Assembly: GCA_010015585.1 (NCBI GenBank)
Contig: ML975193.1
Source: Eremomyces bilateralis CBS 781.70
Lineage: Eukaryota
Length of the DNA: 52,329 nt
Direction: 5' to 3' (one strand)
Below, in pieces: positions 3,844 through 38,739 of the stretch. The translations under genes and the position numbers were made by a program. Within the stretch, counting starts at the first letter, position 1; each line of letters opens with the position of its first letter. The notes below the pieces were generated by a model. The model searched no databases, was not told the DNA's origin, and was given only the letters and a program-made list of their open reading frames with translations.

Positions 3844-4691
3844 GGCTGCGAGAGGGTCCGGAGAAGGACCTGGCTGACTTGTGGGGGAATCGCGGAGTGG
3901 GATGTGTTGGATACGAGATCTTTGGCGAGAAATATCGGTCGTATATCGGTCGTTAAATGGGTATTAGATGTTCAGGAGGCAACCGGTGTGTTGGAGTGGA
4001 GGTCAAGAAGCCTGACATGCAGTTAGTTCCTGCATCCTTGTGGAACCAGATAAGAGTTTAACTCACCAAGAGGAAATATAGCTTCGGATATCAGCCTTGA
4101 GGAACAGTACGGATATTCTGTTCGGAATTTGGGACCGCTGTGAGGGAATATGGGGAATATGGACAATACGACCGGAGGTGGTCGTTTCTGTGCGGTGACT
4201 GTGCTGCGAGGTTGGCAGGAGAGGATTGGATGGCTCAAACGCTGTGTCAAACAATAACTGTACAGAGTGGTGGTATGGTATGCGAGTGAAATATACAAAA
4301 GTCACAGCAGCAGCAACCTGCCGCCCGCGGGGAGGACTGAACAGTTAAAGGCTGAAAGTAGGAGGCAGATTAACAGTGAGGTTGGGCAAACAGATCAACA
4401 TTTGGCTGGGCGACGTGTGGGGCGGGGGCTGGGGCCAGGGGTTGGGGGCCCAGCCACCAGATGTGTGGCTGGTGATGCGGGGTGCCATGTCACGTGCATA
4501 TTGCTGACAGGGCCCCTCAGGCAAATGAGGCAATTAATTCAATATTGTTTGTTTACATAATCGTCACGATTAAATCGATCAAAAACCAGACATCCCTCCC
4601 TTTATTATCGTGAACCAAATAACTATAGAAAGTTACAAATAGGAAGTAAGTCTTTCTTCAGTTCGTATTCTCTTATGCTCTACTATATACT

Positions 4692-6805
4692 CTATAGCTT
4701 GGCCTCTACTCTCGGCCCTTCACCTTCGACTTCAGCAGCCAGCGTCCCTTCCGCTACTTCTTCGCCGTCCTCCGCTTCAGTTACCCAAGTGATTCGCCCT
4801 GTCCGATGTGCTCTCACCTCCAACTCCATCTTCATCTGCTGCACGACGCAGACGACATCGCCTTCCTTCACAATGTCTCCTTCGTCCACAAGCACCTCCA
4901 CAAGCTTGCCCGGGAACGGGATGATGATGTGGGCCGGATTCTTGGGATTCCCCTTGCGCTGCGTGCTGGTCGTGGACCCGGCACTGGCCGTGGTGCTTTG
5001 AAGAGCCAGCTTATATGGCGTTGGCTTCGTCGCGCCGCTGGGTGTGTACATGATCTCTGCCGTCATTGCCGTCGGGAATTCATTTCGCAACACCTTGATG
5101 AGCTGGAGATGATTCGTCACGCTTGCGTTCGGATCATCGCGAGGGGCCAGGGTGAGGGACCAAGCATCGCCTTTGCGGAAGAGAACGCTCGTTTGGCCAA
5201 AAGATGCGCCCTGGGAGGATGAGTCGGCCAGAACTTGAAAGGTGCGAGGTGCGCGTGCGGTGATCGACTCTCCAGTCTGTAGAAGTTCCACCTGCGTGGC
5301 CTCCAGCCATCGAGTATCACACTTCCCAGCTAGGAAACTAGGGTGGGAGACGATACCCTTGAGTACATCAAGATTGGTTTTCACTCCTTCGATCCTCGTG
5401 TCGACGAGCGCCCTCTTGGCCTTGGCCACCACATCTTCCCATGACAGAGCTGTCACAATGATCTTCGCCAGCAGACTATCGAAATCGGTGCTGACCATTG
5501 CTGAATGGCCAGAAATCAGGTTGGTGTCGACTCGAATGCCATTTCCACTGGGGAAGTGGAACGACGAGATCTTCCCTATGCTGAGGGACCAATCGTTTTG
5601 AACGTTCTCCGCCGTGATGCGGAGCTGCACTGACCGAAGGGCAGGAGGTTCAGCCGGATTCTGCGTGGTTTGTGACATGAGCTCGGAAATTCTCGCTCCA
5701 TGAGCCAACCGCAGCTGCAGCTTGACAATGTCATGGCTTGTGATCGACTCGGTTATGGTGTGTTCAACCTGCAACCTCGGATTGACTTCGAGGAAAAAGA
5801 ACTCCTTCGTTTGAGGGTTCGCGAGGAATTCGAACGTCCCCAGTGACCGGTAGTTGATCTGAATCAACTAGTCAGCATTCAAGTGACCTACGAGGTATGT
5901 TTTCAAACTTACGCTTCTCGCCATGCTCACAGCAGACTCGATAACTCTCGCAACGAGTGCCCGGTCTGTTATCGAACTAGGCGCAATCTCCACTACCTTC
6001 TGATACCTCCTTTGTATGCTGCATTCCCGCTCCCAGAGATGTCGTACGTCCCCATTGCCATCGCCAACGATCTGAATCTCGATATGTCGGTATCCGTCAA
6101 CTGCAGCTCGCTCAGCAAAGACTTGCTTCGAAGGGCTCTCTTCAATGGCTCGTCTAGCGGAACTCTCCAGCTCTTCTTCCGACCGAATCAGACGAATCCC
6201 TCGTCCACCGCCACCGTCCACGGCCTTGACCATGATGGGATAGCCACATTGGCTTGCGAATTTCTGGAGAACTTGTATGGAGTTTGTTGGGGTGGTCAAT
6301 GCCGGTAGAGTTGGCACGTTGCCTATTTAAAATCAGCAATCGGATAGCAAAAGACATGGACAAGTCTCGCACATGCTGCTGCCAATTTCTTCGCTTCAAG
6401 CTTGTCGCCGGTGCGAAGCAAAATCTGGGCACCTGGCCCGATAACAAAAGCTCCTGTTTCCTGCTCGACTCGCCGTGCAAATTCCGCCGACTCCGACAAG
6501 AACCCGTATCCCGGGTGCACGGCTTCGATTCCATGGCTTTTGACAATTCCAATAATTTCCGCGATGTCCAGGTAGGATGCGGGAGAAGCGAGCTTTAAGG
6601 CATGGTCGGCCCCAACAGTGTGGGAGTTGTCCTCGCCGGAATATATCGCGAACGTTTCAAGTTCCAGTTCCCGTGCGCTGGATATGATTCTCGTAGCAAT
6701 CTCGCCTCTAGGATATATCTCAGTCTCGTTTCATTTGTTTCATTCATGAGATGAGTCGACAGACCTGTTGGCAACAAGGAGGTTCTTAAATGGCCTCGAA
6801 CTCAT
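4692..6805 (-). CDS. Biotin carboxylase + biotin-carrier (alpha) subunit of an acyl-CoA carboxylase; 4 exons
   Basis: Motifs LLVANRGEIA, HPGYGFLSE, KAVDGGGGRGIR, RECSIQRRYQK, EVNPRLQVEH and biotinylation site QMKME. Introns at 6708-6764, 6323-6372 and 5859-5912. C-terminus is AKL. Confidence 0.92.
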
Positions 6806-7240
6806 CTTCAAGGATTCGATATACGCGGGTTTACTTCTGGTTTTGGTAGAGGCACGTTACTTGGTGTCAGATATCACGTCTTAGCTTACCAGTCAACAGC
6901 TGTTAAAGGGAACTGTTCACTAAAATGGACGATATCCGAACTATGTATATCTTTAAGTATATTTGTAAACGCCGAATATCCTATGCTACTCTCCGAGCAA
7001 AACAATCCATGGTGGCTTGGTCCGGTTGAAAACGTGGGGTCATCGTGGGGCAGGAAGGGGCACCGAGGCATTGACGATTGATCTCCATAATACCCCAGCT
7101 TTACTCCCCGAGGTCCCCATACGTAGGTGACGGACAGTCGCCGCTAATACACAGCGAAATGTAAATGTTGTGATGGTGCTGTTCCTTGCAGCAGGTTTAG
7201 TATCTGAACGACTCTTGGGTTATCCGGGTTGCAATTGAAG
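6806..7240. promoter_or_regulatory. Bidirectional promoter of the carboxylase pair with FarA/FarB-type and CreA-type motifs
   Basis: 435-bp gap between divergent ATGs. CCGAGG at 7063 and 7108; SYGGRG matches at 7034, 7045 and 7093 (minus strand). Confidence 0.55.
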
Positions 7241-9150
7241 ATGGGTGCAGACGACAACTCCTCCAACGCGACAGCGCGTCTGTCGCAACTTTCTTCGCAT
7301 ATCTCTCCAAAGAACGCGGACGAGAGAGGTGCTGAACAACAGACGAAGACACGATCTCGACGAAAGAAGAATGTCGACAATACCCTCCCTCCCGACTACT
7401 CGGACATCCTGGGCCAGATCACCTCGCTCCAGAAGATGGCCCTCACGCCTGATCCCACGAATCGAGGGTACAGCCGACAAAAGCAAGCGGGCAAGCTCTG
7501 GGTGCGTGAGCGGGTGGAGCAATTGCTCGACGAAGGGTCATTCCGAGAGGTCGGGAGCGTGAGTGGGACGGTGGAGTGGAAGAAAATCGCCGCGGCGCGA
7601 GAGAAGCCGGTGTCATATGTCCCTTCGAACAACGTGCAAGGGTTTGGGAAGTTGAGAGGTCGGACGATCGTGTTCACTGCGGATGATTTCTCGATAAGAG
7701 CCGGGCATGCAGATGGAGCGTTGATGGATAAGACCGTGAGTATGATCCAACATTGACCGTCATATGGCCGCTGACAGTCAATAGTTGTACATGGAGAAGC
7801 TGGCCGTCGCCTTAAGACTGCCGATGGTCAAGCTTGTGGATGGATCGTCTGGTGGTGGATCCGTCACCACGATTCGCACGAACGGGTTCTCATATATTCC
7901 CCCGATGTCCGCCTTCCCCCCAGTAATCGAGCAATTGAACATGGGCATACCCAATCTGGGCGCCGTCCTAGGTCCTGCGATCGGTCTAGGCGCGGCTCGC
8001 GTCGTCGCATGCCACTTCTCCGTCATGGCGGCAGATATCGGCAGTTTATTCAACGCTGGGCCGAATGTCGTTGCGGGTAATTCCCCCGGTGCGTGAGTTT
8101 GCGATCACGATAGCTAACGAATCCAGGCGCCACATTCGAGGAAGGTCTCAGCTTCACGGAGTTGGGCGGCCCCGCGATGCACTGCACTAACGGGACCATC
8201 GACAACCTCGCTGCGAACGAAGCGGAATGTTTTGAGCAGATTCGAACCGTTCTGGAATACCTTCCAAACTCCGGCTTCAGCGCACCGCCATCGGTGCCCG
8301 TGGAGGACCCGGTAAATCGAAGCTGCCCAGACCTCCGGACCATCATCCCGAGAAAGCGGGAGCGAATGTATAATGCTCGAAAGATCATTACGTCTGTGGT
8401 CGATCAAGGCTCCTGGTTCGAGATTGGTTCTTTGTGGGGAACGACCGCGATATGCGGCTTAGCCAGGTTGGGAGGCTATCCGGTTGGGATCATCTCACTG
8501 AATTGCGAAGGTGAGTGTCGACGGCCGGCAAGGGGTTTTCATTTTGCTGATCAGTCACAGTGAACGCCGGCGCGCTGGATGCACTTGGCTCCCAGAAGCT
8601 CAATCGACACCTGAAGTTCCTTGATATTTTCAATATTCCTCTACTTCAGTTCGTGGACGTCCCGGGGTATGCGATCGGGACATCCGCCGAACGCACCGCG
8701 ACCATGAGACACGGCGTAAACCTGGCCGTAACTTACTACTCCACGACGATCCCGATCTTCAACGTCGTGACGCGAAGAGCGTATGGCGTCGCGGGCGGGA
8801 TCATGCTCGACTCCCGCGACCCTCGGCAAAGAGTCTGCTGGCCCAGCGGTGAATGGGGTAGCCTTCCGCTGCAGGGCGGCATCGACGTCGGCCATTCATT
8901 TGAGCTGAAGGAGATCGAGCGGAAGGAGGGCCTGGCGAAACGAAAGGAGCGGTACGATGAGCTGGACGAGGAATATCGGCGGCTGATGAATCCGGTGCGG
9001 ACGGCGAACCATTTCGGGGCGGAGGAGATTATCGACCCGGCCGATACGCGCTATGTAGTGTGTACGTGGGCAAAGCACTACTACGATGAATTGCTCCCGA
9101 TTCGTCTTATGGAACGGACTGGGGGGAAGATTCATCCTTCATTTGCATGA
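7241..9150 (+). CDS. Carboxyltransferase (beta) subunit of an acyl-CoA carboxylase; 4 exons
   Basis: Motifs GKLWVRERVEQLLD, ADDFSIRAGHADG, GPAIGLGAAR, GLARLGGYPVG and FVDVPGY. Introns at about 7736-7784, 8077-8126 and 8511-8560. Confidence 0.92.
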
Positions 9151-9354: not shown

Positions 9355-11814
9355 TCAGAGCTGCTTTTCTTCACGACCATCCATATTTGCGGGAGATGGG
9401 GACGATGGAAAAGGTGGACTTTCTGCAGCGCTAGACTCATGCAGCCGCGTTCTTCCATTCGTACTCCTAAGCCACGGGCGGGCTTTATTCGGGGCTACGC
9501 CTGGAATTTGGCTGCTTCTCTTGGGAATGCTCTGCCTCAATGCAGATGGACTAGAGGGGGCAGGCCGATCTGGAGTGGAGGTTCTTTGCCAATATGAAGA
9601 TACGAGTTCCCCCTCCTCCTTTGGAGTGGCATTTCGACTTTCCCAGTTAGCCGACCCAACTGACTGCTCGCGATCATCCAGCTCTCTCTGAGCGATGTCG
9701 TCCTCCGTCCGCCATTTGACTGGGCTTTCATCATAAGGGTCGAAGCCAACGCGACGTCTTGCCTCTGCACGGACACGTTGGCGATAAGCCGAGTCGTTCC
9801 CTGCGCCTACAGTGCTACTCTCACTGAGGAAGAAATTCAACAGTTCGTCGGTGATGGAGAGATGCGAAGTCTGTTGAAACTGCTGCAACGATGTGAGACG
9901 GATTAACAGCTCAAGAAGAGAAAGCGACGTGCGCAATGGGGGGAGGGATGGTGCACGAGCGAGAGTCTCGGGTGTAAGGGGAGCTGGTGTCATCGGAGTA
10001 GGGCTTCGTTGCCATCGCTCCATCTGACCTGAACCTGGTGTGGAATTCTCTAGGTGCAGATGAGAAAGAGCAGATGCCAGGGAGGGGTCTAATGACTGAG
10101 AACGAGATGTTGACCGAGTCCCGGGCTTGCGCCGCGTTTTAGCATTTTCGGTCAGTGGGGGGGATGACGGTATTGGGCTAGTTGAGGTGGCATCCTCGTT
10201 CGAGGGCTCTTCGTCGTCATCAGACCCAGAACTCTCGACAAACACCTCAAAAGCCATCCATTCTGGGTCAAGATTTGGGGGTAGGGACCATGGATCACCA
10301 CTTCGGGGCAATTGTTGATGCCTCTCCTGGTCGTATTGATCAGACGTGCCCTCTAGATTTTGCGACTCGGGCTCGTAATCCTCCTCTTCAGACGAATAGG
10401 ATTCCTGGGTGAGATTCAGGGGTAAGGCCAGTTCTTCCCCACCCTCTCCAGATGTCTGCCTATCCACCATACGTCGAGGCAATGCCGCATTAACATCCCG
10501 CTTTAGTAGCAGAACGGGGTTGTTGGCTTCTCCTTGTGAGCCGATATTCAGAATCTTGCCAGTGTCAGCGTAGAAAATCTTCGAGATCTCATGAATTGGC
10601 AGGAGGGTTCGAATGCCTGCCATAGCGACATCGCCAAATGGACCAGGTTGCGGCTGATCGTCTTCAAAGGTGTGAACTCGGTCATCGTCAAGGTCCTCGA
10701 CTATTAGAAGCTGGTATGCGAACTCATGTGCTTGTTGTTCCGCAGGGATGGTATCTACACTCCTGTACGGGTGGCCGGTCGCTAATTCCGAGGACAGAAC
10801 GCCGATATCACGGAGCGGAACCCGAAGCAGCCTCACCTTGGCTTTGTGTATGACTTCTTTCCACGTGGTTTCGCGAATGTTCTCCCTGTCCTGGGGTCGA
10901 TTGGCATGGCCCGAGAAAAGCATGTACATGGAAAGGTGAAATGACGGTCCCACTTGGATCGCGTGTCCTGGAGTTATTGAATATTGAGTGTCTGCTGCCG
11001 TTAGGAAGGTGCTGGCTTGGAGTAACCGAGACGCTGAGACTGTGCGAGGCAAATCTGTTGAGAGGCTAGCGCCTGAGGTTGTGATAGCCAAGTTGATTAA
11101 GGGGACAGCATCCTCAATACGAGCCAACAGTCTCTTCATGTCATTGATGACCATTTTAATCTCCAGCTCGGCCTGCGTACGAGCGGAACTTCTCAACTTG
11201 CCGTCGCTCACGGCCTCCCCGTCGCTTGCAGCTTTCGAAAGTCTGATGCCCAGTGACTGAATGTCAAAACGCAATGATTTGGTCAATGAAACTGCGGATT
11301 CCAGTGACGTGTTTCCTCTTGCTGCGCTTGGTGTAGTTTTAGCATTGCTTAACAAATCCGAGGGTTTGCGGTCACATACATCAACTCAATCATGTCGATA
11401 GCGGGTGACAGGATCCGGATTTTGCTCTCCAAGCGGAGTTGGAGATCAGTGATTTCATCCTTGGTCGATCCTTCAACTGTCTTCAAAAGGCGAGAACATT
11501 GTTTGATTGCAAACCCGCTCGTGATGGTTATACCAGAGCTTCAACGGAGTCAGCCTGGGGTCCTCAAAGTGCTGACCTGAGTGAAGGCCGTCTCAAAAGC
11601 TTACCGAATGGCATAGTTCATCGCCTGCTGAGTGATCTGTAAGGGTCAGCACATGATTATCTTCGTACGTACACATGTTAGATGGGGGCCATTTTCAACA
11701 GCGGCTAGACAGTGAAGTAGAACCATCCATCGAACTGGGCGTCAGGGGTTGAAAGTGACTTTCTGGACAGAGGAGCACTCTGGGACTGCTCACCTTTGAA
11801 AGGAAGACTTCCAT
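9355..11814 (-). CDS. YRB30: RanGTP-binding protein (Yrb30 family)
   Basis: Spliced N-terminus MEVFLSK/ITQQAMNYAIR; RIRILSPAIDMIEL, ARGNTSLESA, RIEDAVPLINLAITTSG and LSLLELLIRLTSLQQFQQ motifs. Confidence 0.85.
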
Positions 11815-24279: not shown

Positions 24280-24393
24280 AACATAAAACACCAGCCCTAC
24301 CGTTAGTGGTGAAGTTCATCATCGAACCCAACGATCGATATCCACCGTCAACCGGTGAGCAACATCGTTAGACCTGACCAAGAAACATCCGTC

Positions 24394-26368
24394 ATGGCCC
24401 GTAACGCCAACGACCGTACCTCATTCCAACCTCCAATGTACCTCTCACCGAACCAGCAAGATGCATTTCTTGCCTCCCTCGCCTCAAACCAGAAGAGTGC
24501 GGGACTTGGCCTTCAGAACCAGAATCAGCGCCTGGACCCCATGCAATTCAATTTCGATGGAGGGTTCGATCAACCACTCTTTCCGACCGATGCCTTGGAC
24601 CAGACTACTTCATTTGGAGGAGATCAAGTAAACGACTTCGATGCCTTCGAGGATAGCCCGTATCTCGACGTTATCGATGGAACAGAGGGAAGCTACGATT
24701 TCGATATCCCCGAAGGGGGTCCGGCAATGTTCGGCGCCCTCCCGGGAGATGACTCTCCAACTACGGGACTGTCTAATTCGGAAAGTCCTCAACCGGAGGG
24801 CCACTACTCGGATAAGAGGAAGAATAGCGAGGACGCGGAAGAACCTGACGAAGCGAAGCGACGAGAAAGCGACGACAAGGTATCCAAGAAACCGGGAAGG
24901 AAGCCGCTGACTACAGAACCCACAACGGTATGTAGAGCGTTCAACCAGCTCGAATGCGTACTGATGATTGGAATAGAAGCGCAAAGCCCAGAATCGAGCC
25001 GCGCAACGAGCGTTCCGTGAACGGAAGGAAAAGCATCTTCGAGACCTGGAAACCAAGGTGAACGAGCTAGAGCAGGTGTCCGAATCCACCAACCACGAGA
25101 ACGGTTTGCTCCGTGCCCAAGTTACCCGCTTACAGACTGAGTTGCGAGAATACCGAAAGCGGCTCTCTCTCAATGCCAGCGGGCTGGGTGCATCGCCTCC
25201 GCTCCGTGGTGGACTAACCGCCTTGTCTACTAGCAATGGTGCGTCATCCGACAACACCTTCAGCTTCGACTTCCCCAGGTTCGGTGCCTTGCCGGCCGGT
25301 CCGCAGCTCTTCCTCAAAGACAATGAAAAAGCGAGATCGACGTCATCTTCCTTGAATGGACGTCGCGTTTCGGATCATGCATCGGGCGCGCCGTCGCGGT
25401 CCGGCAGTACTGGAAGTATGAGCCCCGAGAGCCAAACATCTCCGGCTCAAAATAGCACAAGCACCAAGGGGACGAGCCGAACCAGCGCCGATAGCGTTGC
25501 CGATCCATCCCGCGTCTTCCAATTCAACAGCTCGGGATCCAACTCGGCGTCCCCTTCTTCTTCTTCACTCTCTCAATTCGGCCCCAACTCCTCCTGCGGC
25601 ACCTCCCCGGAACCAAGCCACAACTCCCCGGAAAAGAACTTAGACAAGGTCAACGGCCAAGGGTACATCTGCCACGGCGGCTCCGAAGGTGAGGTCACCT
25701 TCTGCGAGCAACTCAACATGGCCTGCGGCAACCCACGCAACCCTGTTCCCCGATCGATGTCCCAATCTAACGCGTCCGCAAAACCCACAGACCTCTCACC
25801 CAACCCCACCTCCTCCGCCCGCACCACCCACGTCAACGTCAACGGCATCGACTGGCTCGCCGACCAGAACGGCGGCCAATTCGACCCCCTCCTCTTTGGC
25901 GAGTACCGCGAGAGCCAGGCCGCCGTCGTCGGCGACGGTGACTTCACCGGCGGCTTCTTCAACGATGCCTTCCCCATCGATCTCAGCAGTCCTTTCGGCA
26001 CCACCGGCATCACCCCCGGCCTCCAGTCCGCCACCAAACGCAACCCCATGGAGGAAATCGACGCCCTCAACAACGCCGACGACGACGACGAGGTCGTCCC
26101 CGGCGAGGACAGGAGCAAGATGCTCAGCTGCCACTCCATCTGGTGCGTCCCCTCCCATCTCCCCCCTCTCCTCATCATTCATACTAACCCACCTCCCAGG
26201 GACAAATTGCAAGACCGCCCCGACTTCAAGGAGGGCAGCTTCGACATCGACGGGCTGTGCACAGAGCTCCGCGCCAAGGCGCGCTGTTCGGAGAGCGGGG
26301 TCGTGGTCGATCAGAAGGATGTGGATGCGGCGTTGCAGCGGTTTCCAGCAAAGAGTCCGGAGCCGTGA
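24394..26368 (+). CDS. YAP1: AP-1-like oxidative-stress bZIP transcription factor (Yap1/Pap1/NapA); 3 exons
   Basis: KKPGRKP..KRKAQNRAAQRAFRERKE bZIP, SCGTSPEP, FCEQLNMACG, FDPLLFGEYRE and C-terminal DIDGLCTELRAKARCSE cysteine-rich domain. Confidence 0.95.
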
Positions 26369-27332: not shown

Positions 27333-29195
27333 GGGGCGCGGGGGCGAAGCGGAGGAGGAGGAGTTGGAGGTGGTGATAGAGGAGTTCGAGGTGGGGGATG
27401 GTGGGGAGGAGGTCGGCAGCGAGGTCGCGGAAGAGGGAGAGGGTGGCGTTGGTGAAGCCGGTGAGGATGAGGGTGGCGGGGCTGGAGGGGTCAAGGTGCG
27501 CGAGGAGGGGGTCGCGGGGGAGGAGGCTGCATGCTTTGACTGTTTTGACGAGGTCGCCGAGGATGAGCGCTGATCCTAATGTCGGGTTAATACAGTTCGC
27601 CGGTATAATCATGATGGGACGTACTTTTCAGGAAGTGGAGCTCTGGGCCCAAGATGGCTGCATCCTCGTGCATAGTAGACATCCCATAGTCCGGTAGAAG
27701 AGCCGACTGGCAGAGCGAGATCGCATGCCATTGATCGAGAACGTAGATGGTGTAAAAAATGCGTCGAGCCAGCCGTTCGTCCGTATCCTGCGACAAATCC
27801 CCATCGAGAATCGTAGCCCTCCCACGCGGCTCTTCAAGACGCAAGTGCTTCGACTGCCCAATCGCCCTCGCGAGCCACTCGCTGCGCGACGTCACGGTAT
27901 GTTTATCATGCAGCGTCTGGTTCTCCGACGCGAGGTGCATCAGCACCAGCGCCTGCACGTAGACCAAACTGTTGTGGAACGCGGCGTTGATCGGGTCCTC
28001 GTAGTGCCAGAACTGGAGGAGCTTGCTGACGGTTTGGAATTGCTCGCGGAACTCGGCGTCTTGCGGGAGTTTCGAGCCGGGGCACGAGCGGATGAAGCAT
28101 TCAAGGGCGAGGGTGAATGCGCGGCGGAGGGTTGGGCGGCAGAGGGTTAGGCGTTGGCGAAGTTGGACGATGGATTTCGGGAGGAAGGGAAGCTGCTGGT
28201 GCATGCGCTCATAGTAGCTGTAGGGTGTTAGCACTATAGCACGAGTCTCCATGATCAACTTACTCGGAAACAATGGTGTAGTTCCATTCCGGCAGTCCCA
28301 AATCCTGAGTAAGGTCCATATTGAACCAATCATCGTCATCATCTTGCTGCGGTTGGGCGTCCCGCGCCCCATCCTGGGGACCTGCCGATGGCAATCGGAA
28401 GCCATCTTGCTGAGCCAAAGCAAGGTCATGGATCCCTTGGGAAGCCGAGTACGTGCGCTTGCGAGGGTTCGTCGGGGTCGATTCCGTCCCGCTTTCTCCA
28501 TTGAAGTTTGCCAAGTTCTGGACGTACGAGAAGTCGGTATCGTGTGCGTTCGGTTGGCTGTTGAAAGGATTCAAGGATTGCTCAAGGCTTTGTACTCGGT
28601 CGGCGAGTTCTTTGATATATCTAATGATTTGTTAGATAGTGCTAACAACTCATGCTCCGGGAACTTACCCTTTGCTTGGTCCCCGTTTGAGTTGCTGTCT
28701 TGTAAACTGGCATCGAATCCCAGCTTTCTTGCAGTTCCTACACGCGTCCTGCTGATCCGGCGCAAGATCGCATTTGATCTAAATGATATCCATCAGCATC
28801 AACATCTCCTACCACATCATCACTCTTACCTTCTTCTGCCGACACCCATCACAGGCCCTCGACGCCTTCTGCCGCTTCCCCGGCCCCGACCCGATATCCG
28901 ATACATCCGCCAACGAGTAATGATGCTGATGCTGATACGGCGGCAGCGGCTCTGTAAGTACATCGCTCTGATTCGGCGGCTGCGTTGGCGTTTGCACGCG
29001 CGGGACGTGGTGCGCCTGGTCTTCCTGGTTCCGGGCGATCAGCGGCGCGGTCGCGCGCTGCAGTTCGGCGGAGAGTTCCATGTCGGCGCGGATCTCATTC
29101 GCGGCGGCAGAGGCGCCATTGTGGCTGTAGAACGGCGCGGCGCCGGTGGTGACTTGGGCGGCGTCGGGGGATGGGTAGGATTGAGGGTTGGACAT
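26867..29195 (-). CDS. Zn2Cys6 transcription factor, Rgt1-like; frameshifted at a poly-C run in this sequence
   Basis: SRACDGCRQKK/IKCD...CRNCKKAGIRCQF...KRGPSKG/YIKELADRV across introns, followed by a fungal TF middle region. The last exon changes frame at 27298-27331. Confidence 0.8.
27298..27331 (+). repeat. 34-nt G homopolymer (poly-C on the coding strand)
   Basis: Counted directly from the sequence. Confidence 0.95.
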
Positions 29196-35330: not shown

Positions 35331-38300
35331 ATGTCCTATAACCGCCTCGGTGAGTAACGCTGTCATTTCTATTCCTCCTCTCGGTCCCATGGTTCGGGGA
35401 ATTCGATGCTCCAGTTTGTTAGAAGTTGGACCCTCGACCCATTTGTTTGTCTGTGGATCCTTCAAAGTTCAAACCTTTAAACATTAGTGCCTTACCGTCG
35501 CCCTTACATACAATATCCGCCCCCCCCGCATTCCTCCCCTAATCTACGCCAAGGGATGCGCAATTTCCTTTGGCTCCTCATACATTTTCATACACTCGTT
35601 TCATCGTTCGACGTTTCTGATTATTTCCGCTAACATCTTTCGCTGTCGCTCAAGGCTCTGTTGGCGGCCACACTGACGACGATTACGACGACCGATACCA
35701 CGCCTCCCAGGAACAGGTCCCGATGAACAACCTCCCACAGAATCGAATCGCCTCACCTGGGCACCCGAATCAGGGTTACCAGCTGGAAGAACGCTATGGC
35801 TCGCCGTTAGAAATACCTGTCGGTCCTGGTCCCGGTCCAGGCACGCCATCGGATCGATTACAAGGGCAGCCGACCGTAAGTCGACGCGACGCGATCATGG
35901 TTCAAAGCGCATAGCTGACGTGTCTTTATCAGTATTCGGTCGAGGGAATGCACAATTCATTCGGCCATAACGAACAATACGACACCACCTATCCCCCTCA
36001 ACACCAGCCCCGTCCAGGCGACTATGCCCTCAACCCCGACGACCACCATGACGCATACTTCTCGCAACCGTACAACCCTTCGCCGCAAGAGGGCCGGCCG
36101 CAAGAGGGCCGGCCGCTCAATCAATATTCCTCTCAGGAAGGAGGATGGCACGACTATGATGACGATAGGCCAATTCTCCAACCCGACAATGTCTACGGTC
36201 CGGATCCCCACAGCCCTGCCAGTCCACATGCGCAGGATCCCTTCCAAGGTGCATATACGGACGCGGCTCCTCAACCGACCCCGAGCCCTGCGCCGGTGCC
36301 GATTCGGAGATGGAAGACCGTCAAAGAGGTGCAATTGTTCCAGGGCAACCTCGTCCTCGATTGTCCCATCCCTCCCCGACTCCTGAATCAAGTCCCGCAT
36401 GCGCAAGCTCCGGAACGCGATGAATTCACCCACATGCGCTACTCCGCCGCGACGTGCGACCCGTCGAACTTTTTCGAGGAGCGCTTCACGCTGCGCCAGC
36501 GGCTGTTCGCCAAACCGCGTCATACGGAGCTGTTCATCGTCATCACCATGTACAACGAGGAGGACGAGCTGTTCGCGCGGACGATGATCGGCGTGATCAA
36601 GAACATCGAGTACATGAATTCGCGCACAAGCAGTAAGACGTGGGGAAAGGATGCCTGGAAGAAGATCGTCGTGTGTGTGGTCAGTGACGGTCGTGCGAAG
36701 ATCAATCCGCGAACGAGAGCCGTCCTAGCTGCCATGGGGGTTTACCAGGACGGCATCGCGAAGCAGCAGGTCAATGGGAAGGACGTGACGGCGCATATCT
36801 ACGAGGTACGTCAACCCTATCCAAAATCATTCGACGCATATTGACACAGCACAGTATACGTCGCAGATGGCGCTCGAGATCAAGCGTGGCGTGGTCCAGG
36901 TGAAACGAGGAAGCACCCCGATTCAGATGCTCTTCTGTCTTAAAGAGAAGAACCAAAAGAAGATCAATTCGCATCGATGGTTCTTCCAGGCGTTCGGTAC
37001 CGTGCTCGACCCGAACATTTGCGTGTTGATCGACGCCGGCACGCGTCCCGGGAAGGATTCCATTTACCATCTGTGGAAGGCCTTCGACCTGGAGCCGATG
37101 TGCGCCGGGGCGTGCGGTGAGATTAAGGCCATGTTGAATAAAGGCAGGAACCTTATCAATCCCCTGGTCGCGACGCAGAATTTCGAGTACAAGATGAGCA
37201 ATATCCTCGATAAGCCGTTCGAATCCGCCTTTGGCTTCATCTCCGTGTTGCCCGGCGCCTTCTCCGCCTACCGATGGATGGCGTTGCAGAACGACAAGAC
37301 CGGACAGGGACCGCTCGAGAAGTACTTCCTTGGGGAGAAGCTCCACGGCGCCAACGCCGGCGTTTTCCAGGCGAACATGTACCTGGCCGAGGATCGAATC
37401 CTCTGCTTCGAACTGGTCTCCAAACGCAACTGCTCGTGGATCCTGCAGTACGTCAAGTCCGCTAACGGCGAGACGGACGTGCCCACGGAGATGTCCGACT
37501 TCATCCTACAGCGTCGTCGATGGTTGAACGGCTCCTTCTTCGCCGCGGTGTACGCCCTCGCGCACGCGTTTACCATCTTCCGCAGCGACCACTCGTTCCT
37601 GCGAAAGGTCATGTTCCTGTTCGAGTTCCTCTACCAAACCATCAGCATGATCTTCGCCTGGTTCGCCATCGGAAACTTCTTCCTGGTGTTCCGTATTCTG
37701 ACCGACTCGTTGCGCGACCCGCTGCTGCTGGGGACTGCGGGGAGGATTTTGGCGATCGTGTTTCAGTGGCTGTATGTGGCGGTGCTGGTCACTTGTTTCG
37801 TGCTCGCGCTGGGGAACCGGCCGCAGGGCTCGAATAAGTTTTACATGAGCATGGTGTACTTCTGGTGTCTCATCATGGGGTACGTTCCCTTTCTTCGTGA
37901 TGCGTCGACAAGCTAACGGCTCATAGGTATCTGATGTTCGCATCGATCTACATTACGGTGCGGGGCATTCAAGAGGAGACCAAGGATGGCGATTTCAGCG
38001 TCTCGGAACTCTACAAGAACCCGCTCTTCTTTACGCTTATTGTGTCTCTTCTCTCCACCTACGTCATGTACTTCATTGCATCCTTCCTCTTCTTTGACCC
38101 ATGGCACATGTTCACTTCGGTAAGTCCCCTGAACATTCTCAAAATGACCTGAAGTTGACGTCTCTTCAGTTCATCCAATACCTCCTCCTAACCCCGACGT
38201 ACATCAACATCCTCAACGTCTACGCCTTCTGCAACACCCACGACATCTCCTGGGGTACCAAAGGCGACGACAAAGCCGAGAAGCTCCCCTCCGCTAACAC

Positions 38301-38739
38301 CAAGCCCGGCGGTAAAGTCGCCGTCGACATCCCCACCGACGACGCCGACCTCAATACCCAATACGAGACTGAATGCCGCGTCTTCGCCTCCAAGTACGAG
38401 GTCCCCAAGAAGATCCCCTCCCCCTCTGACAAGCAGGAGGACTACTACAAGGGCTTCCGCAGCGCCGTCGTGCTGCTGTGGATGTTCACCAACCTCGCCC
38501 TGTGCGCCGTCGTGCTGGCCACGGGGGGGCTACAGGTCTCCGTCGATCCGGAGAAGCGGGATGAGGACTCGAATAATCGGGCGAAGATCTACATGGCGGT
38601 TATCCTGTGGAGCGTGGCGGGACTGAGTATGGTGCGGTTTATCGGCGCGCTTTGGTTTTTGATTGTGCGCATGGTGAGTCTGCCCTCTTCCCACACTTCT
38701 TCGATCCCAACTAACCTCCGCTAGTTCCGCGGTGTCTAA
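35331..38739 (+). CDS. CHS1: Chitin synthase, class I type; multi-exon
   Basis: Micro-exon [61 protein letters not shown]; final exon FRGV*. Confidence 0.95.

Follow-up and report, generated by a model that had tools for sequence, protein, structure and literature searches.

A pair of divergently transcribed genes in the dothideomycete Eremomyces bilateralis CBS 781.70 raises the question of whether a biotin-dependent carboxylase works inside peroxisomes. Eukaryotic enzymes of this kind are, by textbook account, cytosolic, mitochondrial, or plastid. The stretch that we analyzed (52,329 nucleotides of contig ML975193.1, assembly GCA_010015585.1; below, the window) contains one gene for a biotin carboxylase (BC) joined to a biotin carboxyl carrier protein (BCCP), here called alpha, and a second gene for a carboxyltransferase (CT), here called beta. 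Alpha ends in a sequence that resembles a type 1 peroxisomal targeting signal (PTS1), and beta carries near its N terminus one that resembles a type 2 signal (PTS2). We conclude that the products of the two genes probably form a single acyl coenzyme A (acyl-CoA) carboxylase of the peroxisomal matrix, which would depend on ATP and biotin and be induced by fatty acids.

A preliminary description of this region had reported BC-BCCP and CT genes diverging across 435 bp, an alpha subunit that lacks an N-terminal extension and ends in AKL, and the nonapeptide RLSQLSSHI at beta residues 13 to 21; rebuilt, transcript-supported gene models confirmed all of these features. The alpha gene (4692 to 6805, minus strand) encodes 650 amino acids in exons 6805-6765, 6707-6373, 6322-5913, and 5858-4692 (including the stop codon), and the beta gene (7241 to 9150, plus strand) encodes 586 amino acids in exons 7241-7735, 7785-8076, 8127-8510, and 8561-9150. 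The six introns of the two models are all of the GT..AG type and 49 to 57 nt long, and the spliced translations are identical at every letter to the database proteins of this strain (P0001 for alpha and P0121 for beta). Transcript evidence came from one public run (X1) labeled "RNA?", the two contigs of which we took to be transcript assemblies. These contigs span 4669-6940 and 7106 to past 9400, and precisely the six modeled introns are absent from them, which indicates that both genes are expressed and spliced as modeled. The beta start at 7241 is fixed by an in-frame stop codon at 7205-7207. On the alpha strand, no upstream ATG was present between 6940 and 6806, which lies within the alpha contig. 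Between the two start codons lies the divergent intergenic region (6806-7240; 435 bp), 165 bp of which (6941-7105) fall outside both contigs.

The alpha protein begins with MSSRPFKNLLVANRGE and leads straight into the BC domain (residues ~6 to 448), followed on the minus strand by a conserved middle domain (~452 to 575) and the BCCP (~573 to 640). Pfam recognized Biotin_carb_N, CPSase_L_D2, Biotin_carb_C, and Biotin_lipoyl in alpha; PF00289, PF02786, and PF02785 were present in alpha and in 40/40 orthologues, and PF00364 (the BCCP family) in alpha. Across the 40 orthologues, the glycine loop, K234, E286, N288, R290, E294, R342, and M604-K605-M606 were invariant, and we take the invariant residues to map onto the catalytic residues of Escherichia coli BC. 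The BCCP of alpha reads QQMKMELEV, in which the lysine of the M-K-M motif (Lys605; codon at 4830 to 4832, minus strand) is the predicted site of biotinylation.

The middle domain between BC and BCCP (residues 452 to 575, ~120 residues; 4920 to 5291, minus strand) is conserved, with FRKGDAWS and VLRN[ED]FP as its conserved blocks. The BT domain (PF18140 or PF21139) was matched by Pfam in 0/40 alpha orthologues at an E value of ≤1, and a profile search of the PDB returned nothing below an E value of 0.1, the only matches being weak ones (E ≥ 0.12) to the segment that leads into the BCCP in pyruvate carboxylases. In the ESM Atlas, the nearest feature clusters were PCC_BT/BT_MCC_alpha at a cosine of 0.87, which is under the 0.9 bar and which we treat as a lead only. 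The middle domain is likely a docking domain for beta, possibly of the BT/PT type.

Several features of alpha recall pyruvate carboxylase. Its BC domain scored 375 to 380 bits against pyruvate carboxylases, compared with 281 to 320 bits against the alpha subunits of propionyl-CoA carboxylase (PCC) and methylcrotonyl-CoA carboxylase (MCC; 281 to 295 bits), and as a whole it resembles a pyruvate carboxylase minus the carboxyltransferase domain. The lead-in to its BCCP (HRRG-P-N--H-IPFPG) is weakly like the segment ahead of the BCCP in pyruvate carboxylase (E = 0.12), and an Atlas cluster of 639-amino-acid "pyruvate carboxylase family" proteins from Basidiomycota has the fold of the middle part in common with alpha (TM score, 0.67). 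However, alpha reached only 554 bits against NF009554 (pyruvate carboxylase; cutoff, 965) and matched profile positions 3 to 483 only, Pfam detected neither an HMGL-like nor a PYC_OADA domain, and the partner of alpha is a CT of the acyl-CoA type. We therefore rejected the identification of alpha as a pyruvate carboxylase.

The C-terminal A-K-L of alpha (positions 4695 to 4703, minus strand, codons reading from 4703 to 4695) is followed directly by the stop codon (4694-4692). The PTS1 consensus is S/A/C-K/R/H-L/M at the extreme C terminus, and AKL conforms to it. All 120 alpha relatives retrieved by database search ended in [ASTNPVG][KR]L (ARL, 45; AKL, 36; TRL, 12; NRL, 8; SKL, 6; PKL, 5; SRL, 4; VRL, PRL, VKL, and GKL, 1 each), and a PTS1-type tail was likewise found in 34/34 metagenome loci with a readable alpha C terminus, in one of them as SKI. 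In an alignment of 40 full-length alpha orthologues, the final column was L in 40/40 and the penultimate column was restricted to K or R; the nine preceding columns varied or contained gaps. The open full-text literature yielded no proteome record that places alpha in peroxisomes.

Beta consists of an N-terminal extension of ~50 residues followed by the carboxyltransferase domain, and all four of its exons matched Pfam Carboxyl_trans (PF01039). Within the extension, RLSQLSSHI (residues 13 to 21; 7277 to 7303, plus strand) is a PTS2-type nonapeptide with Ile at position 9. It matches positions 1 to 8 of the consensus R-(L/V/I/Q)-x-x-(L/V/I/H)-(L/S/G/A)-x-(H/Q)-(L/A), as stated in a passage of PMC4585086, and departs from it in having Ile rather than (L/A) at position 9; one published search pattern, given in the methods of PMC8611851, allows I or V there. 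Among 120 beta relatives, 71 were full length (≥555 amino acids, with an M start), and the other 49 were N-terminally cut gene models, in which PTS2 cannot be assessed. The pattern R[LI]xQ[VIL]xxH[ILVM] occurred within the first 35 residues of 71/71 full-length orthologues; 63 of these fitted the loose PTS2 pattern and 8 the strict Petriv consensus, and the remaining 8 deviated solely at the poorly constrained position 6. Over the first 49 residues of 41 aligned beta orthologues, M1, R13, and H20 were the sole invariant columns. L14 and Q16 were each present in 40/41, position 17 was V, L, or I, position 21 was I, L, V, or M, and the flanks were variable. The same core was found in 56/70 metagenome beta loci, the other 14 carrying variants such as RVAQVSEHL, RAAQLSDHL, and RLNQLSSQI.

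The same source describes the PTS2 helix as depending on R, H, and their hydrophobic partners (five key positions in all), with an unstructured linker after the signal (PMC4585086). A putative linker of this kind is present in the beta sequences, where ~30 to 50 variable, gap-rich residues separate the motif from the earliest conserved block of the CT, at P50. A presequence of the mitochondrial type is lacking in both subunits: alpha opens at the BC domain, and the N termini of beta proteins are acidic. Both targeting motifs have thus been kept while their flanks drifted, which is more than chance would explain.

A second conserved element of the beta extension is a basic cluster, RSRRKK (residues 38 to 43; 7352 to 7369, plus strand), located about 17 to 25 residues behind the PTS2 motif. 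Its columns were nearly all K or R in the 41 orthologues, mostly as KRRRRK (R40 and R41 in 39/41 each), and it is retained at the N terminus of a protein without PTS2 that ends in SKM (P0247). The cluster could mark a site of processing, act as a nuclear-type signal, or contact the CoA phosphate.

Where beta belongs among known carboxyltransferases bears on both its identity and its substrate. We compared beta with solved structures by HMMER and give the results as bit scores. Beta scored 165 to 224 bits against beta subunits of the PCC and acetyl-CoA carboxylase (ACC) types (~30 to 35% identity), the top match being the ACC beta 7w5u; within this range, Streptomyces PccB gave ~201 bits and human PCCB 196 bits. 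Scores were lower for the long-chain single-chain enzyme 4rcn (123 bits), for MCC betas (97 to 133 bits), and for the beta subunit of geranyl-CoA carboxylase (GCC; 5ikl, 115 bits). A representative of the canonical group (P0326) scored 570 to 717 bits against solved PCC-type betas, which puts beta, at 165 to 224 bits, outside the canonical PCC-type clade. A representative of beta's own group reached 247 bits with its best solved match and has no close solved relative. The active-site motifs of beta, DGSSGGGS and RRAYGVAGG, differ from those of canonical enzymes, and NCBIfam matched it to a single family, methylmalonyl-CoA decarboxylase alpha, with a score of 243 bits that falls far short of the cutoff of 999.

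These scores bear directly on the role first proposed for the pair. The preliminary description had suggested that it may relieve the block imposed by beta-methyl branches, as geranyl-CoA carboxylase (AtuC/AtuF) does in bacteria; the pair would then be a peroxisomal counterpart of that enzyme or of MCC. A two-subunit architecture is indeed found in MCC and GCC, and the peroxisome would be a fitting place for the breakdown of branched-chain lipids. Against this, beta is nearer to PCC/ACC-type enzymes than to GCC or MCC over its whole length, and the difference is steeper for its C-terminal exon alone (E = 5e-7 to 3e-4 for MCC/GCC versus 1e-25 to 1e-15 for the PCC/ACC type). The BC domain of alpha, as noted above, is nearest to pyruvate carboxylase and not to MCC alpha, and BT_MCC_alpha was matched by Pfam in 0/40 alpha orthologues. 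We rejected membership of beta in the MCC/GCC lineage, whose scores were weaker than every PCC/ACC-type match. The beta-methyl-branch role is accordingly unsupported, and we regard it as very unlikely.

A search for nearer relatives of beta among 1.84 billion representatives returned proteins that were 37 to 46% identical to it. These comprised bacterial stand-alone CTs annotated as "methylmalonyl-CoA carboxyltransferase," single-chain BC-BCCP-CT proteins (from Binataceae, Pseudomonadales, and Streptomyces), and eukaryotic proteins (from Synchytrium, Jimgerdemannia, Cubamyces, Thecamonas, Diplonema, and Physarum). We built two trees, one with FastTree from 79 rows (12 others having been dropped because HMMER split their match) and one with IQ-TREE in quick mode from 57 chosen rows, rooted on eight canonical rows. 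The two trees agreed on three groupings. They separated the canonical PCC-type group from a second group that holds beta, with a support of 100. Within the second group, a clade of 23 rows (SH-aLRT, 100) contained all 11 eukaryotes known by name, eight other proteins, and four bacterial rows; some of these four are bacterial by assumption, and two are named single-chain enzymes. The Pezizomycotina proteins with PTS2 formed a clade (support, 100) nested among other fungi. Judged by these scores and trees, beta is a member of a sister clade of the canonical PCC type, without a characterized member, and not of the MCC, GCC, or canonical PCC lineages. Together with the Pfam domains, these results support the earlier reading of the pair as a two-subunit biotin carboxylase distinct from canonical mitochondrial MCC and PCC, and neither gene groups inside the MCC or PCC clades. 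Two outcomes named beforehand as refuting the proposal, absence of the motifs from orthologues and a place inside those clades, thus did not occur. An identity as a single-chain long-chain acyl-CoA carboxylase was ruled out by the presence of two divergent genes with separate transcript contigs.

Peroxisome-type signals were also present on CT-bearing chains elsewhere in this clade. Fusions of BCCP and CT from Thecamonas, Diplonema, and three others end in AKL, one ends in CKL, one CT ends in SKM, and in Jimgerdemannia (Mucoromycota) RLQNLAAHV lies near the N terminus. Signals of either type on the CT-bearing chain in several lineages are hard to explain unless the family is peroxisomal, although they are not universal. 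In the BCCP-CT fusion of Physarum (transcript P0438), RIKIVSNHI occurs at about residue 97, between the N-terminal BCCP and the CT, and is placed relative to the CT like the fungal PTS2. Another apparent signal, the AKL end of a Jimgerdemannia fragment (P0290), was discarded as a truncation artifact, since the longer P0432 reads on past it.

A further line of evidence, which does not depend on protein motifs, came from the shared promoter. According to a passage of PMC5068947, CTF1alpha/beta and FarA/FarB, which control cutinase, beta-oxidation, and peroxisomal genes, recognize CCTCGG as the core of their binding site. The intergenic region contains two copies of this element, both on the minus strand, at 7063 to 7068 (178 bp upstream of the beta ATG) and at 7108 to 7113 (133 bp upstream). 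We examined 36 related divergent promoters that were left after removal of near-identical ones and that still included some close relatives. At least one CCTCGG was present in 34/36. The density was 2.56 per kb (45 copies in 17,565 bp), compared with 0.48 per kb for the remainder of these loci. Over 1,000 shuffles, the promoters averaged 7.1 copies and never exceeded 16, versus the 45 observed. The copies lay mostly 100 to 200 bp upstream of the beta start, in both orientations, and beta genes that are unlinked to alpha had the element 134 to 232 bp upstream in 13/13 cases. This conservation ties the pair to fatty acid catabolism independently of the targeting signals, and the CCTCGG core suggests that the pair belongs to the Far (FarA/FarB, CTF1) regulon.

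Together, these observations leave little room for the view that the pair is an ordinary cytosolic or mitochondrial enzyme of the PCC/MCC type whose AKL and RLx5HI are chance look-alikes. The database name of beta ("propionyl-CoA carboxylase beta chain, mitochondrial") and the noncanonical Ile at PTS2 position 9 speak for it. That view would have to account for motifs that persist amid drifting flanks, the lack of a presequence, the position of beta outside the canonical clade (split support of 100, and the gap in bit scores given above), PTS1 on the CT-bearing chain of distant eukaryotic relatives, and the fatty acid box in the promoter. We give it very little credence.

The beta leader, which is covered by its contig from 7106 onward, contains three upstream ATGs: ATG-TAA at 7159-7164, ATG-TTG-TGA at 7165-7173, and an upstream open reading frame of 21 codons at 7173-7238 that terminates 2 nt ahead of the main beta ATG. 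In 36/43 related loci, an upstream ATG lay within 130 nt of beta; random sequence would yield about as many, and we attach no claim to this feature.

The divergent arrangement itself is conserved. Among 57 related loci with sufficient upstream DNA, alpha and beta were head to head in 44, with 319 to 928 bp between the matched ends, and the locus tags of the two genes are neighbors in four species (Plenodomus lindquistii, two Neocucurbitaria species, and Ascochyta lentis). An orthologue of beta is also present in Aureobasidium pullulans. Head-to-head linkage in orthologues, like the recurrence of PTS1 and PTS2 there (120/120 and 34/34 tails; 71/71 proteins and 56/70 loci), had been named beforehand as a check on the proposal, and both are now supported by these surveys. 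That alpha and beta form a single holoenzyme is suggested by one line of evidence, the conserved divergent linkage in 44/57 loci. In most of the loci that lack an adjacent alpha (L007, L009, L010, L017, L019, L044, L046, L050, L051, L054, L056, L058, and L063), PTS2 position 2 is V or A; these loci may stem from one or several fungal lineages with a separated pair. No third conserved gene accompanies the pair, the flanks of 16 related fungal loci being unrelated (sugar transporters in three; CLN3 and a BCKD-kinase-like gene in two).

The bacterial relatives of beta offer a different context. Stand-alone relatives are common in bacteria (at least 598 confirmed stretches), and a BC gene lay within 6 kb in 6/80 bacterial loci (L079 to L158). 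In Achromobacter and Bordetella petrii, the CT is part of a cluster that reads TctC-CT-BC-FadB-like-thiolase-like, and the Achromobacter and Bordetella relatives adjoin genes for aldehyde dehydrogenase and for proteins of the 3-hydroxyisobutyrate dehydrogenase type. This context fits short acyl-CoA metabolism, which we consider suggestive and not decisive.

The scarcity of BC genes beside these relatives also speaks for a reading in which the proteins are peroxisomal but are not a net carboxylase, acting instead on malonyl- or methylmalonyl-CoA by transcarboxylation or decarboxylation, or in which one subunit enters the organelle by piggybacking on the signal of the other. The first variant would accord with the methylmalonyl-CoA decarboxylase alpha match of beta noted above, albeit one far below its cutoff; the second would accord with the import of oligomers, of which peroxisomes are capable. 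Alpha nevertheless has a complete BC domain whose ATP-grasp motifs are invariant, which argues for ATP-driven carboxylation, and the selection that maintains both signals speaks for independent import of each subunit. We therefore judge this reading to be unlikely and retain that of an ATP-driven peroxisomal carboxylase with a signal on each subunit.

From these data we infer the following sequence of events. Alpha would be biotinylated in the cytosol and then imported by Pex5 through its C-terminal AKL, and beta would be imported via Pex7 by its N-terminal R-L-x5-H-I helix. One short bidirectional promoter with CCTCGG boxes would cause the pair to be induced along with beta-oxidation and peroxisome genes on fatty acids or cutin monomers. 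In the peroxisome, the BC domain would use ATP to carboxylate biotin, the BCCP would swing the carboxybiotin over to beta, and beta would move the CO2 onto the alpha carbon of an acyl-CoA, yielding a malonyl-CoA-type (2-carboxyacyl-CoA) product. Because beta is nearer to CTs of the PCC/ACC type than to those of MCC and GCC, carboxylation of the alpha carbon of a saturated acyl-CoA is expected, rather than gamma-carboxylation of a 3-methyl-enoyl-CoA.

Which acyl-CoA would be carboxylated is less certain. Acetyl- and propionyl-CoA are deliverables of peroxisomal beta-oxidation, and our first choice, to which we assign somewhat less than an even chance, is a short end product of that pathway (propionyl-, acetyl-, or butyryl-CoA). 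The nearest solved enzymes over the whole of beta, which are of the ACC and PCC types, and the gene context in Achromobacter and Bordetella favor short acyl-CoAs. Ranked next, as a tentative possibility, is a peroxisomal carboxylase for medium- or long-chain acyl-CoAs, yielding 2-alkylmalonyl-CoAs from beta-oxidation substrates. In its favor, the specificity motif of beta reads RRAYGVAGGIM where canonical enzymes have KAYGGAY[I/D]VM; an ungapped reading puts Gly in place of the Tyr and also of the Asp/Ile (the latter presumably corresponding to D422 of Streptomyces PccB, the specificity residue), and the pocket would open. The solved chains nearest to the C-terminal exon of beta were 5fif, the best match, and 5inf/5ing. 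We take 5fif/5h80 to be a Deinococcus single-chain carboxylase (an identity unconfirmed in the open literature) and 5inf/5ing to be the beta subunit of a medium-chain acyl-CoA carboxylase. The clade of beta also includes single-chain BC-BCCP-CT enzymes, and acyl-CoAs of these lengths are abundant in peroxisomes. On the other side, HMMER introduces a gap at the motif, which makes the alignment ambiguous; beta is only distantly similar to 4rcn, a solved long-chain enzyme (123 bits); and the gene context in Achromobacter and Bordetella suits short substrates.

A broader proposal, which we offer as a speculation with less than an even chance of being right, is that the pair belongs to an old and widespread eukaryotic family of peroxisomal acyl-CoA carboxylases. 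Such a family would fix CO2 onto acyl-CoA products of beta-oxidation within the organelle, would be addressed by PTS1 or PTS2 depending on the lineage, and would be under Far/CTF1 control, opening either an undescribed, B12-independent route for propionyl- or acetyl-CoA or a source of alkylmalonyl-CoA building blocks. It would extend across Pezizomycotina, Mucoromycota, and probably Basidiomycota, with BCCP-CT fusions in Apusozoa and Euglenozoa.

Several observations weigh against a peroxisomal, fatty acid-induced carboxylase. The alpha tails NRL, TRL, PKL, VRL, and GKL are weak or noncanonical as PTS1s; PTS2 position 9 is Ile or Val in most beta orthologues, outside the published (L/A); and seven metagenome variants have Ala, which is noncanonical, at position 2. 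In the wider clade, Synchytrium has no signal (its protein ends in FPF), the YKL end of Cubamyces is doubtful, and the Physarum fusion has only its internal PTS2-like sequence. Alpha was missing within ~4 kb of beta in 13/57 loci, and the flanking genes of the pair offer no clue to a pathway. CCTCGG is a short word and is unenriched across the window as a whole (26 found versus 38 expected). Finally, malonyl- and methylmalonyl-CoA have no known downstream pathway in fungal peroxisomes, and fungi are not known to have the B12-dependent mutase.

Our search of the open full-text literature turned up no account of a biotin carboxylase or acyl-CoA carboxylase in peroxisomes, subscription literature being outside its scope. 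The word "carboxylase" has 0 occurrences in a review of fungal peroxisome functions (PMC3713238), and passages of a study of the Histoplasma peroxisomal proteome name pyruvate carboxylase and MCC as the sole endogenous biotin proteins, supplementary tables aside (PMC13343957). The pair would represent an enzyme of a familiar kind, but in a compartment and a clade so far undescribed. Conservation of the signals, the Far box, and the wider clade all lend weight to the peroxisomal reading. If that reading is correct, many fungi (among them many plant-associated Dothideomycetes) and some protists would carry out ATP-consuming fixation of CO2 beside beta-oxidation in their peroxisomes. This would raise the questions of (i) the fate of propionyl- and acetyl-CoA in the peroxisome, (ii) the destination of peroxisomal malonyl- and methylmalonyl-type CoA esters, and (iii) the route by which holo-biotin proteins enter the organelle. 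The pair would also provide a clean natural example of one enzyme whose subunits use different import receptors. Assignment of a substrate to the clade of beta, which includes the bacterial single-chain enzymes and many orphan CTs, would annotate thousands of proteins.

The surroundings of the pair are housekeeping and regulatory in character. The beta transcript contig (4,390 nt) continues beyond 9400 into a convergent gene for a RanGTP-binding protein (9355-11385, minus strand); the two genes either overlap at their 3′ ends or were joined by the assembly. The rest of the window contains genes for a bZIP factor of the PAP1/Yap1 type, a fragment of a fungal Zn-cluster factor, a class I/II chitin synthase, an eRF3/HBS1-like GTPase, an alpha-amylase-family protein, a proteasome subunit, a WW/FF protein, and a gamma-tubulin complex component; coordinates recorded for other genes of the window are 24313-26368, 27587-28570, and 35915-38724. 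There was no secondary-metabolite cluster among the window genes.

Compared with known systems, the pair is most like the PccB, AccD5, and PCCB enzymes, with which it has in common the placement of BC and BCCP on alpha and of a Carboxyl_trans CT on beta, and which gave the best solved matches. It differs from them in that its beta falls in a separate clade, the BC domain of its alpha is nearer to pyruvate carboxylase, and no BT domain is recognizable by Pfam; where canonical mitochondrial PCC has a presequence, the pair has putative peroxisomal signals in its place. Bacterial single-chain carboxylases (1,091 to 1,141 amino acids) have CT domains 37 to 43% identical to beta, with motifs in common, and BC domains 37 to 42% identical to alpha, but they are one chain rather than two genes and lack both the fungal-type middle domain and targeting signals. 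MCC and GCC (MccA/B and AtuF/AtuC) are likewise two-subunit biotin enzymes, but their betas were the most distant of those compared, and they carry out gamma-carboxylation of an enoyl-CoA. Pyruvate carboxylase gave the best PDB and NCBIfam matches of the alpha BC domain, yet alpha is without its TIM-barrel carboxyltransferase. Far-type CCTCGG boxes occur in promoters of peroxisomal pathway genes, as a passage of PMC5068947 describes. Peroxisomal pathways that combine both signals, such as a PTS2-bearing thiolase beside PTS1-bearing enzymes of beta-oxidation, likewise bring cargo of Pex5 and Pex7 together in one functional unit; here, in contrast, the two putative signals are divided over the two subunits of what is probably a single enzyme.

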